A stretch of 60,611 nucleotides of DNA from an uncultured Anaerolineales bacterium (GTDB lineage Bacteria; Chloroflexota; Anaerolineae; Epilineales; Epilineaceae), in contig CAYYVH010000001.1 of assembly GCA_964475075.1 (NCBI GenBank), forward strand, positions 1 to 60,611, read 5' to 3'. Below are positions 6,873-11,909 of the stretch, one piece after another (the first letter of the stretch is position 1; each line of letters starts with the position of its first letter). Both the position numbers and the translations under genes were made by a program. The notes beneath the pieces are model-generated. The model did no database searches and was not told where the DNA came from. It saw only the letters and a list, made by a program, of their open reading frames with translations.

Positions 6873-7952
6873 CTACTCGGTAAGTGTGGGGTACGCGAAC
6901 GCGAAGCTGCGCAGGTGGGCAATCAACGCCCAAAGCTCGTCCTCGGTGAAGATCGTCGCCCAGTACGGCATGGACGTGCCCATGCCACCCCGCACGAGCT
7001 TGCCGTAGTAGTGCATGTCCGAGGCGCCGGCCTGCGCTGCGAGGTCGGTGAAGTCGACCGGGGCCTTGGCCATGCCGTCCGGATCCTCCTCCGCGGCAGA
7101 TCGGATCGCCTCCGCGCCAGGTCCGTCACCCTGCCCCGACAGCCCGTGACAGCCGGTGCAATCCCGCTCGAAGAGGCGCTTGCCCGTCGCCCGCGCCTCC
7201 GGTGAGGTTCTGCTATGCCAGTAATGAGCGACGACGTCCCAGCGCTCCGCGGGCGACAGGCCGGCTGCTTGCGGCGCCCCGAGCGGACCGGACGCCAATA
7301 GGGCGTAGGCATCGCTCGGAGAGAGCAGGCGTGGGTCGCCCGTGGCCATCGCATCGGCCACAGGCTGGGGAGACACGGCTTGCCACAGGGCATCTCCGTT
7401 GGCAGCATCCGGCTGCGTAAAGGGTGCGAATTCTCCGGGATGGTCGGCGTCGATGTCCAGGCCCGTTGCTACCCAGTCGGTCTGGGGCGGGTCGACGTCC
7501 ATCGCGGATGCGACCGGATGTTCAGGATCCACGACCTCTATTATGCCGCGCATGCGCCAGTGCCCGGTCGTGCACCAGGCGGTGCACAGGAAGGTGAAGC
7601 GGCCCGCGCGGTCGGCGACGAAATCGACCTCCTTTACCTTGCCCGGCTCGATCCACTCCAGGTCGATGCCCATCTTGGGGATCGCGAAGCCGTGGACCAC
7701 GTCGCTGCTGGTCACACGCAGGCGCACCCGTGCGCCCTTTGGCAGCACGATCGTCTCAGGCGTCCAGCCGCCGTGATCCGCCGTGGGCAGGCGCCCCGTC
7801 AGCTCGATGACCCGCCCGGGAGCTCGCCACGACCGGACGGAACGGTACGCCAGGATTGCCAGCGGCAGGCCGATGACGACCAGGAGAACCAAACCGAGGG
7901 CAAGACGCTCGGTCCTGACGTGGGAAGCCAGACGTGGGCTTGTGGGAGTCAT
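6873..7952 (-). CDS. membrane-anchored CuA-type cupredoxin domain fused to a class I c-type cytochrome
   Basis: 359 aa from ATG 7952. One TM helix (LALGLVLLVVIGLPLAIL). DVVHGFAIP, then 35 residues, then CTAWCTTGHWRM (C-x3-C-x3-H-x2-M). C-terminal CTGCH haem motif plus GTSMPYW. The 729-aa track ORF was trimmed. Confidence 0.8.
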   Translation of the reverse strand: MTPTSPRLASHVRTERLALGLVLLVVIGLPLAILAYRSVRSWRAPGRVIELTGRLPTADHGGWTPETIVLPKGARVRLRVTSSDVVHGFAIPKMGIDLEWIEPGKVKEVDFVADRAGRFTFLCTAWCTTGHWRMRGIIEVVDPEHPVASAMDVDPPQTDWVATGLDIDADHPGEFAPFTQPDAANGDALWQAVSPQPVADAMATGDPRLLSPSDAYALLASGPLGAPQAAGLSPAERWDVVAHYWHSRTSPEARATGKRLFERDCTGCHGLSGQGDGPGAEAIRSAAEEDPDGMAKAPVDFTDLAAQAGASDMHYYGKLVRGGMGTSMPYWATIFTEDELWALIAHLRSFAFAYPTLTE

Positions 7953-7954
7953 TC

Positions 7955-9355
7955 CTATCCCAGATAGAGCCAGACGAAACCCAGGGTGAACAGCGTCAGC
8001 AAGACGCTCGTAGGCCCAACCGCCTGCAGTGTGCGCGTCCGCGTCCGTTCCTGCGCGATGCGCCAGAGGGTATACAGGGCGAAGGCAAGCCCACCCAGGA
8101 GCACGGGTACCTGCAGGTAGGGCACCATCGCCGGATAGACGGGCGTCCACGGCACGTCCCGCAGGCCGAACAGGTTCCAGCCCCAGCCGAAGGGATCGGC
8201 GATGACCGGCAGCGCGTAGCTGGCGTTGACCAGCACGAAGCCCAGGCTGAAGGCGATCCAGGCCGCCAGGCCGAGGGGCACCAGCGCATAGGCTCCGTCG
8301 ACGAACAGGGTGCGGAGCGGCACGGCGTCCAGTCGGGCCAGCTTGCGTCCGACGGCCGTCGTGCCCAAGAACAGCCCCGGGATCACCAAGAGGTTGAGGC
8401 TCAGGAACCCGAGCGCGTAAACCAACCACCAGTCCAGGCGCGCAAGCCTGGCGGCGTCCTTGAGCACGCCCCACGGCCCCAGCAGTACGGCGGAGTAGGC
8501 GAGGGCGCAGGTGAGCATGATGAACGCCTTGTACGCCTCGTCCAGCCGCCGACCCTTGGCTACGAACAGGTCGAGACCCGGCGCACGCACGTTGACGGCG
8601 ATGTTGTCCATCGTGCAGGTTTTCAAGCACTCCGTGCACAGGCCGCAATAGGTGTTGCGCTCCAGGCTGCCGGGAAAGACCAGCCACGGGCAGCCGAAGC
8701 CGCGCTCGTTGCCCAGGTAGCAGTCCTTCGTGTTGTGGGTCCGGCACACATCCACGTCCTTGACCCGCAGCTCGGTTGGAGCGGCGGTGGCGTACAGGCC
8801 GATGAAGCCGCCCACCGGGCAGACGTAGCGGCAAAAGGTGCGCCGCTCGTAGACCAGGCTGAGGACCAGCGCCATCAGGATGAAGGCGAGCAACACCGCA
8901 CCAGTGGCAACGGGCTGGGTCAGGATGATGGAGCTGAACAAGGCCACACCCAGGAAGCCGACGTTCTGGAGCCAGATGTTTCTGAACCTGCGCGGCCAGC
9001 GCTTGCCGAGCGACCAGAGCTTGCGGCGCCCGGGATGCACGAAGCTCTGGCGCTGCAGCCACTCACCCAGCGCGGGAATCGGGCACATGGTGCACCAGCC
9101 CCGGCCCAGGACGGGAATCAGTAGCATGATCAAGAGCGCCCACCAGACGATCCAAACGAAAATGATGCTGAAGTTCCGGTTGCCCACCGTGGTGCCGAAG
9201 AACGCCGTGAGCAGGACGATGACGAAGAAGGCCATGCCGGCCAGCACGAGCACGAACTGCAGGGGCCGCCAGCGCAAAACCCGGCCGATCAGGGGGATAC
9301 CCGTCAGATCGAAGCGCCAGGTCGAGTCAGGGCGGACGACCGGCCGTTCGGTCAC
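7955..9355 (-). CDS. integral-membrane polyferredoxin (NapH/NosR/MauN-like 4Fe-4S binding protein)
   Basis: 466 aa from GTG 9355-9353 (GTGA overlap with the upstream stop). Multiple TM helices. Cys clusters GWCTMCPIPALGEW, FCRYVCPVGGFIG, CYLGNERGFGCPW, YCGLCTECLKTCTMDNI. Confidence 0.8.
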   Translation of the reverse strand: MTERPVVRPDSTWRFDLTGIPLIGRVLRWRPLQFVLVLAGMAFFVIVLLTAFFGTTVGNRNFSIIFVWIVWWALLIMLLIPVLGRGWCTMCPIPALGEWLQRQSFVHPGRRKLWSLGKRWPRRFRNIWLQNVGFLGVALFSSIILTQPVATGAVLLAFILMALVLSLVYERRTFCRYVCPVGGFIGLYATAAPTELRVKDVDVCRTHNTKDCYLGNERGFGCPWLVFPGSLERNTYCGLCTECLKTCTMDNIAVNVRAPGLDLFVAKGRRLDEAYKAFIMLTCALAYSAVLLGPWGVLKDAARLARLDWWLVYALGFLSLNLLVIPGLFLGTTAVGRKLARLDAVPLRTLFVDGAYALVPLGLAAWIAFSLGFVLVNASYALPVIADPFGWGWNLFGLRDVPWTPVYPAMVPYLQVPVLLGGLAFALYTLWRIAQERTRTRTLQAVGPTSVLLTLFTLGFVWLYLG

Positions 9356-9849
9356 GGCCGCGTCATCCGATCTCCCTGGCCCTGGACCGTCAGGAAACCG
9401 AGGGTCAGCATGGTGCCTCCGGCGACGACGATCAGCGCTGCCACGGCACGCCAGAACGGTGTGTTGGGACCGACGACCAGCTCGCCGATCATGAACGGGT
9501 GCATTGAGCCACAAGTCACGGAGCACCGGAAGCGGAACTTGCCCACCCGGTCGGCGACGAACGTAGCCTGCGCCGGCTTGCCCGGCTCGGCGGTGATGTC
9601 GACGTCGTAGCCGTCGATGAAGACACCGTGTACGACATCCGTCGAGTGTAGGTTGATGGTCACCCGATCACCCAGGTTGACGCGGACCCTGGCTGGTTCG
9701 AAGGCGAACATGCGGGCGTGGAGATCCACCTGGCGCTCCGTCGGCGCACCCGTGCCTGCCGGCAGGGGCGCCAACAGCGCCGCCAGGGCCAGCAAGACGG
9801 TCGTTCCGGCGGCAAAGGCCGGCCGTGTTCGGCTCAGTGTTCGTGGCAT
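9352..9849 (-). CDS. secreted CuA-type cupredoxin with C-terminal membrane anchor
   Basis: 165 aa. Signal peptide (AGTTVLLALAALLAPLPAG). DVVHGVFI, then 34 residues, then CSVTCGSMHPFM, the spacing of the canonical CuA ligand set H-x34-C-x3-C-x3-H-x2-M. C-terminal hydrophobic helix. Confidence 0.8.
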   Translation of the reverse strand: MPRTLSRTRPAFAAGTTVLLALAALLAPLPAGTGAPTERQVDLHARMFAFEPARVRVNLGDRVTINLHSTDVVHGVFIDGYDVDITAEPGKPAQATFVADRVGKFRFRCSVTCGSMHPFMIGELVVGPNTPFWRAVAALIVVAGGTMLTLGFLTVQGQGDRMTRP

Positions 9850-9918: not shown

Positions 9919-10362
9919 CTAACCCTGTTCGTCCGTCGAGGGCCCGAGACCGCTGTAGCGGTTGACGATCACCTTACGCATCTCGTCCACGCTCTTGCCC
10001 TTGCGGGTCATCACCATCACGTCACGCGTGATGTCCACGCAGATGCCTCAGCCGAGGGCGTGGTTGTCGTACTGCAGGACGACGCCGGGGCCGTTGTCGG
10101 CGGCCACATAGCATTCGTAGTTGGACGTGTGGCCCACCGCGTTGCAGCCACAGAAACAGGGGATCTGTTCGAGTAGGTCCTTGTTGACGATGGCGAAGCG
10201 ATAGGCTTCCTGCACGTTGGTCGGAGCGCTCTGAAGCTCCGCGGGCAACTGCGAGACCGGTGCCATCTTCAGCTCTACCTCCGGCTCGTCACTGCTGCAG
10301 GCCACCGTCAGGAAGCTGACGAGGATGCCCGCCACTAGGGCGGGCCACAGCCGTCTGGACAT
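9919..10362 (-). CDS. PCYCGC-motif lipoprotein with an in-frame TGA (codon 105): candidate selenoprotein or Cys-to-stop pseudogene
   Basis: ATG 10362. Lipobox LTVAC. IPCFCGCNAVGHTSNYEC..YDNHALG[TGA 10050-10048]GICVDITRDVMVMTRKGKSVDEMRKVIVNRYSG..; TAG at 9921-9919. The 42 codons after the TGA stay open and keep the family pattern (H..CxxC..GKS..E.R..I..Y). Confidence 0.6.
10015..10033 (-). promoter_or_regulatory. SECIS-like hairpin 14 nt downstream of the in-frame TGA
   Basis: RNA CAUCACG-CGUGA-CGUGAUG: a perfect 7-bp stem and a 5-nt loop containing GU. The loop begins 21 nt after the UGA. Confidence 0.4.
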
Positions 10363-10919: not shown

Positions 10920-11909
10920 ATGGTGACAGTTGAGACTCAGACCCAGACCCAGACCCAGACTGCTGACAAAGACATTATCGCGGACCGCACTGGAGAAATG
11001 AAAATGGCGGTTGAGATGCTTACTTCGACAATCGAAAACCGGACGCAAGTGAACGGGCTGGGGTCAGAGGACGACGGTACCCAACACCTCGCGCTCGAGA
11101 TCAGAGGCGTCACCAAGGTCTTCCGGTCCTCGCCGGGGTTCATCAAGCTGCTCCGCCGCGGCCGGGCCGCCGAGGGCAAGCGCGTCGTCGCGGTGGACAA
11201 TGTGAGCTTCAGCGTGGAGGCCGGGGAGATCTTCGGCATCCTCGGGCCCAACGGTACAGGCAAGAGCACCTTGATTCGCCTGATCTCGACCCTCCTCATC
11301 CCCGACGAGGGAGAGCTACGCGTCTTCGGCCGTGATGTCGTGGCCGAGGAGGCCGAGGTCAAGCGGATGATCAATCGGGTGTCCGTCGAGGCGTCCTTCT
11401 TCAAGAAGCTGACACCCATGGAGAACCTCATGTACGCCGCCCGGTTGTACCGGGTGGACGCTCGCCGGGCGCGGAAGATGATCGTTGAGATCCTCAACCG
11501 CCTCGGTATCGAGGACGATTCAATCGGATCACCCATGGAGAACATGTCGCGCGGCATGCAGCAGAAGGTGGCGATCGCCCGTGCCTTCCTCTCGTCGCCG
11601 ATCATGCTCCTCTTGGACGAGCCGACGACGGGTCTGGACCCGCATTCCAAACGGCAGGTCCAGGCCTTCGTGCGGGAGATCATGGCAACGCACCATACGA
11701 CCGTCCTGTTGACAACCCACGACATGTACGAGGCGGACGCCATGTGCGACCGCATCGCCATCATCGACAAGGGCCGGATAGTCGCTCTGGACACGCCGGC
11801 CGGGCTCAAGCAGATGATCAGCCGCGACGGCGAGGAGCCGACACTGGAGGACGTGTTCCTGGAGCTCACCGGCCGGCAGCTGAAAGACGAAAAGGAGGTG
11901 ACGCCATGA
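10920..11909 (+). CDS. ABC transporter ATP-binding protein (ABC-2/DrrA-like exporter type)
   Basis: 329 aa. RBS AGGAGGTG. Walker A GPNGTGKST, signature MSRGMQQK, Walker B LLLDEPTTGLD, H-loop TTH. About 55-aa N-terminal extension with a (TQ)4 repeat. Confidence 0.9.
   Translation: MVTVETQTQTQTQTADKDIIADRTGEMKMAVEMLTSTIENRTQVNGLGSEDDGTQHLALEIRGVTKVFRSSPGFIKLLRRGRAAEGKRVVAVDNVSFSVEAGEIFGILGPNGTGKSTLIRLISTLLIPDEGELRVFGRDVVAEEAEVKRMINRVSVEASFFKKLTPMENLMYAARLYRVDARRARKMIVEILNRLGIEDDSIGSPMENMSRGMQQKVAIARAFLSSPIMLLLDEPTTGLDPHSKRQVQAFVREIMATHHTTVLLTTHDMYEADAMCDRIAIIDKGRIVALDTPAGLKQMISRDGEEPTLEDVFLELTGRQLKDEKEVTP

Follow-up and report, generated by a model that had tools for sequence, protein, structure and literature searches.

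We have analysed a 60,611-nucleotide stretch of DNA from an uncultured Anaerolineales bacterium (NCBI GenBank assembly GCA_964475075.1, contig CAYYVH010000001.1), hereafter called the window, in which a minus-strand gene at 10362..9919 carries an in-frame TGA. Our analysis indicates that this UGA is very likely read as selenocysteine (Sec). Taken as a whole, the explanation that we favour, and regard as highly probable from the sequence comparisons, is that the gene would encode one 147-residue extracytoplasmic lipoprotein of the PCYCGC/CYCXC family, in which codon 105 would be decoded as Sec, giving U-G-I-C in place of the C-x-x-C of its relatives, under the direction of a hairpin within the coding sequence (CDS). 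This hairpin, with a 7-bp stem and a CGUGA loop, would act as a bacterial Sec insertion sequence (SECIS) and would presumably be read by SelB with Sec-tRNA(Sec). The protein does not found a new selenoprotein family: it belongs, under a faulty annotation, to a sister subfamily of one that is already catalogued. The points of more interest are an apparent SECIS frozen from coding sequence, repeated switching between Sec and Cys, and an operon that links selenoproteins resembling OS_HP4 and OS_HP2 to CuA-type cupredoxins.

The reading frame is open on both sides of the UGA. The gene begins with an ATG at 10362-10360, reaches the TGA at 10050-10048 and continues for 42 further open codons, with the translation GICVDITRDVMVMTRKGKSVDEMRKVIVNRYSGLGPSTDEQG, to a TAG at 9921-9919. 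These features, which the first-pass annotation had described together with the letters and coordinates of the hairpin, were all confirmed on the sequence. The complete gene (9919..10362, minus strand) thus spans 147 codons with Sec as codon 105, and its start matches that of the homologues, which have the same M-[ST]-R-R-L-W. When the TGA is read as Cys, the read-through translation scores 92.6 bits against PF13798, compared with 57.6 bits for the truncated open reading frame (ORF). The match passes the gathering threshold of 25 bits and covers residues 28-142 (profile positions 32-147 of 153), with the TGA inside, and the 42-residue tail by itself still matches the end of the model. At the other end of the translation, a signal peptide and lipobox (…LTVA-C22) occupy 10297..10362 on the minus strand, with the codon of the lipid-anchor Cys at 10299-10297. 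C22 is kept in at least 90% of 110 homologues, and it is from this lipobox motif that we infer a lipoprotein. Because the signal peptide is accompanied by a conserved lipobox Cys and its Arg-Arg is not conserved among homologues, export would probably proceed through the ordinary Sec translocon, and any metal or redox chemistry of the protein would then be extracytoplasmic.

Comparison with relatives places the TGA at a residue that is otherwise strictly maintained. The protein search returned 173 homologues, ten of which, besides the product annotated in the window, end at the same point (...HALG) with a length of 103-104 residues, and the closest full-length homologues read ...HALG-C-GICVDIT.... 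In the alignment of full-length homologues, the TGA column (C105; 10048..10050, minus strand) is Cys in 110/110, in agreement with the first-pass annotation, which had placed the TGA at the first Cys of a C-x-x-C. The partner residue of the resulting UxxC, Cys108 (10039..10041, minus strand), is likewise Cys in all 110, and it can be made only upon read-through because its codon lies 3' of the UGA. Further invariant columns among the 110 homologues are C69, C71 and C73, which belong to the family motif P-C-F-C-G-C (P68-C73; 10144..10161, minus strand), together with H78, C84 and H101. At the DNA level, TGA occupies the column in 9/9 reference-genome relatives, followed in each by 40-45 conserved codons; these relatives are metagenome-assembled genomes (MAGs) labelled Chloroflexia, Anaerolineae, Caldilineales or Chloroflexota, with one labelled only 'uncultured bacterium'. 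TGA forms occur in the MAG of the window itself and in CAVPPH01, JAULUH01, JAYRVO01, JAGFJG01, JAADGC01, CAZHTZ01 and JAJRXO01. A metagenome scan gave 80 more loci. The resulting TGA set comprises 18 sequences, all nucleotide-distinct (the window, the nine reference-genome relatives, seven metagenome loci and locus L091), and stands beside 73 Cys forms with TGC or TGT in the fetched DNA, L091 and L094 being counted.

These counts bear on the alternatives that the first-pass annotation had left standing, namely a fresh pseudogene or a base-call error, to which an assembly error can be added. Here TGC or TGT would have turned into TGA in a single record, with a tail that is decaying or was never part of the gene. 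One base change would suffice for this, and public gene callers do treat the TGA as a stop. However, 18 sequences that all differ in their nucleotides, drawn from assemblies and lineages independent of one another, have the TGA at this column, and it is also present in an independent assembly of the same organism from the Joint Genome Institute (JGI; L010, contig KVRMV2_100038917). A systematic error common to all of them is implausible, given that they stem from different sequencing projects. In the main clade the ratio of nonsynonymous to synonymous divergence (dN/dS) is 0.18 downstream of the TGA and 0.12 in the core upstream of it, at a synonymous divergence near saturation (dS ~1.4). Directly 3' of the TGA, three codons preserve G/S-I-C while varying synonymously (GGC/GGG, ATC/ATT, TGC/TGT), and the C108 codon is TGC in 15 and TGT in 3 of the TGA forms, so that the residue is retained through synonymous change. 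By these measures the tail is translated and under purifying selection at the protein level. Since the tail shows purifying selection and G/S-I-C is kept synonymously, a pseudogene or sequencing error can be ruled out, and we assign this alternative a practically negligible probability. The candidate selenoprotein of the first-pass annotation has instead gained support from the Cys/TGA pair, the 18 TGA forms, the purifying selection after the TGA and the co-occurrence of hairpin and TGA described below.

In public records the gene is either truncated or split, the window's product being entered as a 104-aa protein, while the JGI assembly has the tail as a separate ORF of 54 aa that starts with GTG (10038-10036 in the window). 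The arrangement in the JGI assembly corresponds to an alternative in which a 104-residue lipoprotein is followed by a tail translated through re-initiation at the in-frame GTG 10038, four codons downstream of the TGA. We consider such a split gene highly implausible. The G-I-C between the TGA and the GTG is conserved, and it includes the invariant C108 that a start at the GTG would lose. The GTG itself is not conserved, being ATC in L015 and L045 and CTG in L009. Moreover, the tail alone would have no signal peptide and could not reach the compartment of the exported N-terminal part, and all 73 Cys forms encode one polypeptide. The two assemblies of this organism also differ at the end of the gene, where a 1-nt indel (window 9919-9935, L010:5595-5769) gives the JGI version 15 extra codons (…DEQGLESELVSHLGYLSPR) in place of the TAG; homologues end near …GPSTD(E)Q, which favours the gene end in the window over that in the JGI assembly.

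The putative SECIS lies within the CDS at 10015..10033 on the minus strand and consists of CATCACG (10033-10027), CGTGA (10026-10022) and CGTGATG (10021-10015), with a 7-bp stem formed by 10033-10027 and 10021-10015 and a 5-nt CGUGA loop. The stem begins 14 nt and the loop 21 nt after the TGA. Published constraints on bacterial SECIS (bSECIS) elements, as in the bSECISearch model summarised in PMC13188914, call for a loop of 3-9 nt that has a G at its first or second position and U or G directly after it, a stem of 4-16 bp, a minimum free energy (MFE) of <= -7.5 kcal/mol and 16-37 nt of spacing. The hairpin in the window lies within every one of them, with its 5-nt loop, 7-bp stem, spacing of 21 nt and MFE of -7.7 kcal/mol.

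The association of this hairpin with the TGA across relatives is far more informative. The hairpin core ATCACGCGKGACGYGATG is shared by all 18 TGA forms and missing from all 73 Cys forms (Fisher p = 2e-19, with phylogeny not corrected for), and hairpins average -7.2 kcal/mol in the former and -1.6 kcal/mol in the latter. Across the six hairpin codons, the proportion of synonymous differences (pS) is 0.000, compared with ~0.65 in neighbouring codons. The TGA forms always use ATC, ACG, CGT or CGG, and GAC, and they use GTG except in L040, which has GCG. Among 72 Cys forms, ATC is found in 40, ACG in 12, GAC in 19 and GTG in 21, and codon 8 is mostly Gln. Five Cys forms encode the identical peptide ITRDVM with ACC/CGG/GAT/GTC codons and do not fold. 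One closely matched pair is L091 (TGA) and L094 (TGC), where the Cys form shows two synonymous changes within the element, CGT>CGC and GAC>GAT, both at positions that are invariant in Sec forms; the loop G-U is lost through one of them, and the other makes the closing pair weaker. A consensus fold of 14 Sec forms with RNAalifold returned exactly the 7-bp stem and 5-nt loop. The only variation in this hairpin is U/G in the loop, a C-G or U-G pair at the stem base and a single mismatch in L040, and the MFE is -6.1 kcal/mol for the T-variant stem alone and -3.9 kcal/mol for L040. Across all Sec forms, loop position 2 is G, followed by U in 15 sequences or G in 3.

Several observations weigh against our reading and must be set beside this comparison. 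Of the 1476 TGA trinucleotides in the window, which has a G+C content of 66%, 147 (~10%) have a hairpin of bSECIS geometry with a stem of at least 7 bp downstream; with 4-bp stems allowed, ~70% pass. Passing a permissive bSECIS model with a 7-bp stem therefore says little, and since the z-score of the local 69-nt fold is only -1.74 as well, the hairpin in one sequence is weak evidence that becomes strong only via comparison with relatives. The hairpin argument of the first-pass annotation is sound as regards the SECIS-like geometry, but it loses its weight as single-sequence evidence. The Rfam scan of the window found no family that matches the hairpin at gathering score, which carries little weight because curated models give poor coverage of short bacterial SECIS hairpins. 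Compensatory covariation is lacking in the 14 Sec forms (0/7 pairs with double changes) because the element is essentially invariant, and the mismatch in L040, a Sec form, is an A-C within the stem. By the chance of coding, 8/72 Cys forms pair at all 7 positions. Beyond the hairpin, searches of the window and of 396 kb from related loci revealed no gene for selA, selB, selD or tRNA-Sec, in a sample of DNA much too small for absence to be concluded. The window protein also misses the equivalog cut-off of the NCBIfam model for the catalogued family, NF041379 ('OS_HP4_CYCXC: CYCXC family (seleno)protein'), scoring 59.4 bits where 90 are required.

Some of these points would fit an alternative in which the UGA is indeed Sec, but the 19-nt hairpin is a mere by-product of the ITRDVM codons and the real SECIS lies elsewhere or is another structure. 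The peptide does predispose its codons to AUCAC/GUGAU pairing, as the fully paired Cys forms illustrate, covariation offers no help, and RNAfold on the window's sequence with longer flanks prefers an alternative pairing with the duplicated GUGAUG. That pairing needs the GUGAUGGUGAUG duplication, however, which is found only in the window and L009, and the 7-bp stem is the sole structure common to the 14 sequences. In addition, only TGA forms have the synonymous sites frozen (18/18 compared with 0/73), the same peptide being encoded by different codons in Cys forms. We accordingly leave the by-product alternative a very slim chance and return to the hairpin as SECIS. Because the ITxDVM codons predispose to AUCAC/GUGAU pairing and full pairing already occurs in some Cys forms, the hairpin looks exapted from coding sequence and then frozen. 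In the mechanism we propose, the codons of the conserved peptide I-T-x-D-V-M would already have been prone to pair, and Sec forms would have frozen the synonymous positions together with an Arg codon, CGU or CGG, to give a perfect stem with G-U or G-G in the loop.

A reassignment of UGA was considered and rejected, as four relatives (L002, L003, L008 and L009) use TGA as the terminator of the same gene. In the search for the Sec machinery, E. coli SelA, SelB and SelD served as tblastn queries (best E = 0.28) alongside motif scans and ARAGORN, which reported no tRNA in the 60.6-kb window or in the 17 Sec-form loci, and an 8/4-type tRNA-Sec may escape this program. Chloroflexi have been reported with tRNA-Sec, the 8/4 type included, and with selenoproteins, and MAGs with 46-49 selenoprotein genes are on record. 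A second TGA gene provides further evidence from within these loci. In 23 loci the PCYCGC operon is found together with a DUF1573 gene (PF07610, OS_HP2-like). Of 20 copies examined, 18 have an in-frame TGA at E-G-C-U-P-P (L001:709-711, L002:579-581 and 16 more loci, e.g. L021:5412, L025:5534 and L078:7667), with the remaining two reading G-C-C-P-P (L091:9791 and L023:3831). The DUF1573 hairpin lies 19 nt after the TGA and has 7 bp and a GUU loop, and three of its stem pairs show compensatory changes. L001 and L002 carry the TGA forms of both PCYCGC and DUF1573, at most 3 kb apart, and the TGA-form DUF1573 in these loci is, as far as sequence can indicate, independent evidence that UGA is decoded as Sec in these organisms. 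The window itself has no DUF1573 gene. Ten other read-through candidates at TGA codons in the window, with high G+C at third codon positions on both sides, were rejected for their wrong-frame or antisense-frame composition, with a G+C of 0.61-0.78 at second codon positions and an abundance of Ser, Arg and Ala.

These observations are relevant to programmed read-through without selenium, in which the hairpin would drive the insertion of Trp, Cys, Gly or Arg, or would set the ratio of short to long product. The inserted residue is not identifiable from sequence alone, and the failure to find the Sec machinery in the DNA that was searched would suit this alternative. On the other hand, a UGA at an invariant Cys that is probably redox-active or metal-binding is the specific signature of Sec, the hairpin has SelB-type geometry with G-[U/G] in its loop, the family is catalogued as UxxC selenoproteins, and the phylum is known to decode Sec. 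DUF1573 in the same cluster, with its own Cys/UGA pattern and its own G-U-loop hairpin at an almost equal spacing of 19 nt, points the same way. We therefore rate read-through without selenium as quite improbable and retain Sec as the residue encoded at codon 105.

Sec and Cys do not separate cleanly along the phylogeny. In a neighbour-joining (NJ) tree, TGA forms are found in at least six Chloroflexota lineages, two Cys forms (L011 and L012) branch within the main Sec clade, and one Sec form (L040) branches among Cys forms. In addition, the Sec form P0111 and the Cys form P0122 (loci L091 and L094) share one protein cluster at 90% identity, and in the 120 nt that follow the Sec/Cys codon the DNA identity of the two is 87.5%, which identifies this pair as a recent Sec/Cys switch. 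Because of the nesting in the tree and the mixed cluster, Sec and Cys appear to have been exchanged repeatedly, with the TGA nevertheless kept over deep divergence, down to 42% protein identity (L009).

The PCYCGC gene is first in an operon with three partners, all on the minus strand. Partner 1 (9352..9849) is a 165-aa cupredoxin with a CuA-type C-x3-C-x3-H-x2-M motif (CSVTCGSMHPFM) and a C-terminal membrane anchor (Pfam COX2 and Cupredoxin_1). Partner 2 (7955..9355) is a 466-aa polytopic membrane protein with 4Fe-4S motifs (Pfam Fer4_5) that resembles NapH/NosR, with NCBIfam NapH/MauN and NosR matches that are weak and far under the cut-offs. Partner 3 (6873..7952), of 359 aa, is a membrane-anchored CuA-type cupredoxin (CTAWCTTGHWRM) fused to a c-type cytochrome with a CTGCH motif (Pfam COX2 and Cytochrom_C). 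Homologues of partners 1, 2 and 3 are present in 78, 63 and 69 of the fetched loci, respectively, some of the matches to partner 3 being weak or partial and overlapping the 165-aa cupredoxin. The operon is kept in Sec and Cys forms alike. The cluster at 6873-9849 contains neither a haem-copper oxidase subunit I nor NosZ, and it has the appearance of an 'orphan CuA' electron-transfer module. In some relatives a CopB-like P-type ATPase, which has a CPH motif and is rich in His at its N-terminus, lies directly upstream of the PCYCGC gene (L094:147-1382, L095 and L072, and more weakly L049, L053 and L058), a neighbour that hints at a copper-related operon. On the plus strand of the window, the product of a divergently transcribed ABC-transporter ATPase gene opens with a short Thr-Gln repeat (MVTVETQTQTQTQTADK, 10920-10970) that a hexanucleotide-type repeat encodes, its start codon being uncertain. 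The sole Rfam match in the window is a SAM riboswitch (RF00162, 59165-59269, minus strand, 92.5 bits).

This operon context suggests an extracytoplasmic redox or copper role for the PCYCGC protein. Our best guess, from context only, is that the UxxC is a redox-active or Cu(I)-binding selenol/thiol site that serves the CuA proteins. The site would work with the invariant CxCxC, His and Cys residues at the outer face of the membrane, and its clients would be the NapH-like ferredoxin and the two CuA-type cupredoxins, whose CuA cysteines it might, for instance, reduce or metallate. The AlphaFold model of the Cys homologue P0003, which is 63% identical, is confident, with a predicted local distance difference test score (pLDDT) of 86.4 and a predicted template modelling score (pTM) of 0.75, and in it helix 108-122 has the CxxC at its N-terminus. 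Weighing against this functional part, a Foldseek search of the P0003 model against the PDB gave nothing significant (best E = 5), with CcmH at rank 2 (E = 6.3, TM score of 0.52 normalised to the target). Similarity to CcmH was not significant in sequence either, with a Pfam E of 0.07 for the tail and profile E values of 0.41 and 0.03 for PDB 2kw0, covering only the helix after the CxxC. The three CcmH signals are all weak and short of significance and the CxxC is not colinear, so that CcmH is retained as a functional analogy only. The CxxC region also matched 2z8q, a ferredoxin-like entry, with E = 0.002-0.004 over only a short Cys-containing stretch.

It is tempting to speculate further that the OS_HP4-like PCYCGC protein, with its UxxC, and the OS_HP2-like DUF1573 protein, with its G-C-U-P-P, jointly form a selenol module at the outer face of the membrane for copper handling or CuA maturation in Chloroflexota. 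Such a module would serve an undescribed electron-transfer unit of two orphan CuA cupredoxins, one of them fused to cytochrome c, and a NapH-like membrane ferredoxin, with Sec and Cys versions swapped repeatedly. We hold this proposal to be doubtful; if true, it would supply the first functional context for both families and a rare use of Sec outside the cytoplasm for the assembly of metal centres. Whatever its merit, the operon, with two CuA cupredoxins, a NapH-like ferredoxin, often a second selenoprotein and sometimes a CopB-like ATPase, is a testable context for two selenoprotein families. The locus is also an unusually clean natural experiment on the origin of a SECIS, which would be half-formed in Cys relatives, frozen once the UGA is in place and relaxed in nested Cys revertants, and L091 and L094 could serve as a natural matched Sec/Cys pair.

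The family to which the protein belongs has already been recognised as containing Sec. The first-pass annotation was not aware of any such listing, a view that does not stand: OS_HP4, or CYCXC (PF13798, NF041379), with the motif UxxC, is tabulated as a selenoprotein family in PMC9312934 and PMC13188914. Both attribute OS_HP4 to Zhang and Gladyshev 2007, on Olavius algarvensis symbionts (PMC1976440), the main text of which names only OS_HP1 to OS_HP3, and the Global Ocean Sampling (GOS) paper has OS_HP1 and OS_HP2 only. The window protein matches NF041379 with E = 3e-16 over model positions 12-89 of 90, and scores against this model are 56-75 bits for ten related sequences, eight of them Sec forms and two of them Cys forms. 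It thus shares with OS_HP4 homology over nearly the whole model, the C-x-C-x-C motif, a single Sec in a UxxC and the existence of Cys homologues. Because the domain has a single CxxC, the Sec column is presumably the same as that of the UxxC in OS_HP4. In contrast, the window protein has 147 aa compared with the ~90-aa model, with a lipoprotein signal peptide and a linker in addition, and its clade comes from Chloroflexota, whereas OS_HP4 comes from a deltaproteobacterial symbiont of Olavius. The window clade is, judged by these scores, a sister subfamily of NF041379 outside the NCBI equivalog. As it falls below the cut-off, public annotation misses the Sec and truncates or splits the gene, which affects the gene in the window and at least 17 Chloroflexota relatives; a model or cut-off fitted to the subfamily would mend this systematic error. 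In the literature we did not find the Chloroflexota lipoprotein subfamily, its SECIS or its operon described, and only two papers were found to mention PCYCGC, neither of which deals with selenium.

Cys-form PCYCGC (lipo)proteins of PF13798, exemplified by P0007 from an Anaerolineae bacterium, which NCBI names 'PCYCGC motif-containing (lipo)protein', agree with the window protein in the lipobox and in the invariant Cys and His columns, and their Chloroflexota members share the operon; they differ in having Cys at 105 and a hairpin that is not frozen. Another Cys form, AOT13_14730 of Parageobacillus thermoglucosidasius (PMC13068155), adjoins a gene for an Fe3+ binding protein, in contrast to the CuA cupredoxins at the locus in the window. 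OS_HP2/DUF1573 (PF07610, NF041425) is another of the 'Olavius symbiont' selenoprotein families, whereas PCYCGC is a separate gene with a different protein fold. The DUF1573 protein of these loci scores 26.5 bits against an NF041425 cut-off of 100, and the position of its Sec, G-C-U-P-P, may differ from the UGC or UxC motif given in reviews. With CcmH, Sco and TlpA, extracytoplasmic CxxC/CxxxC factors for the maturation of copper and haem centres, the PCYCGC protein shares a functional analogy only, all being membrane-anchored and outward-facing, with a Cys pair at the N-terminus of a helix and genes that adjoin those for CuA or cytochrome c proteins, and CcmH differs in having no significant similarity to it in sequence or fold. 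Finally, the hairpin resembles the consensus bacterial SECIS in being a stem-loop within the CDS just after the UGA, inside all the published constraints, and differs from it in being unusually short and unusually invariant in sequence.

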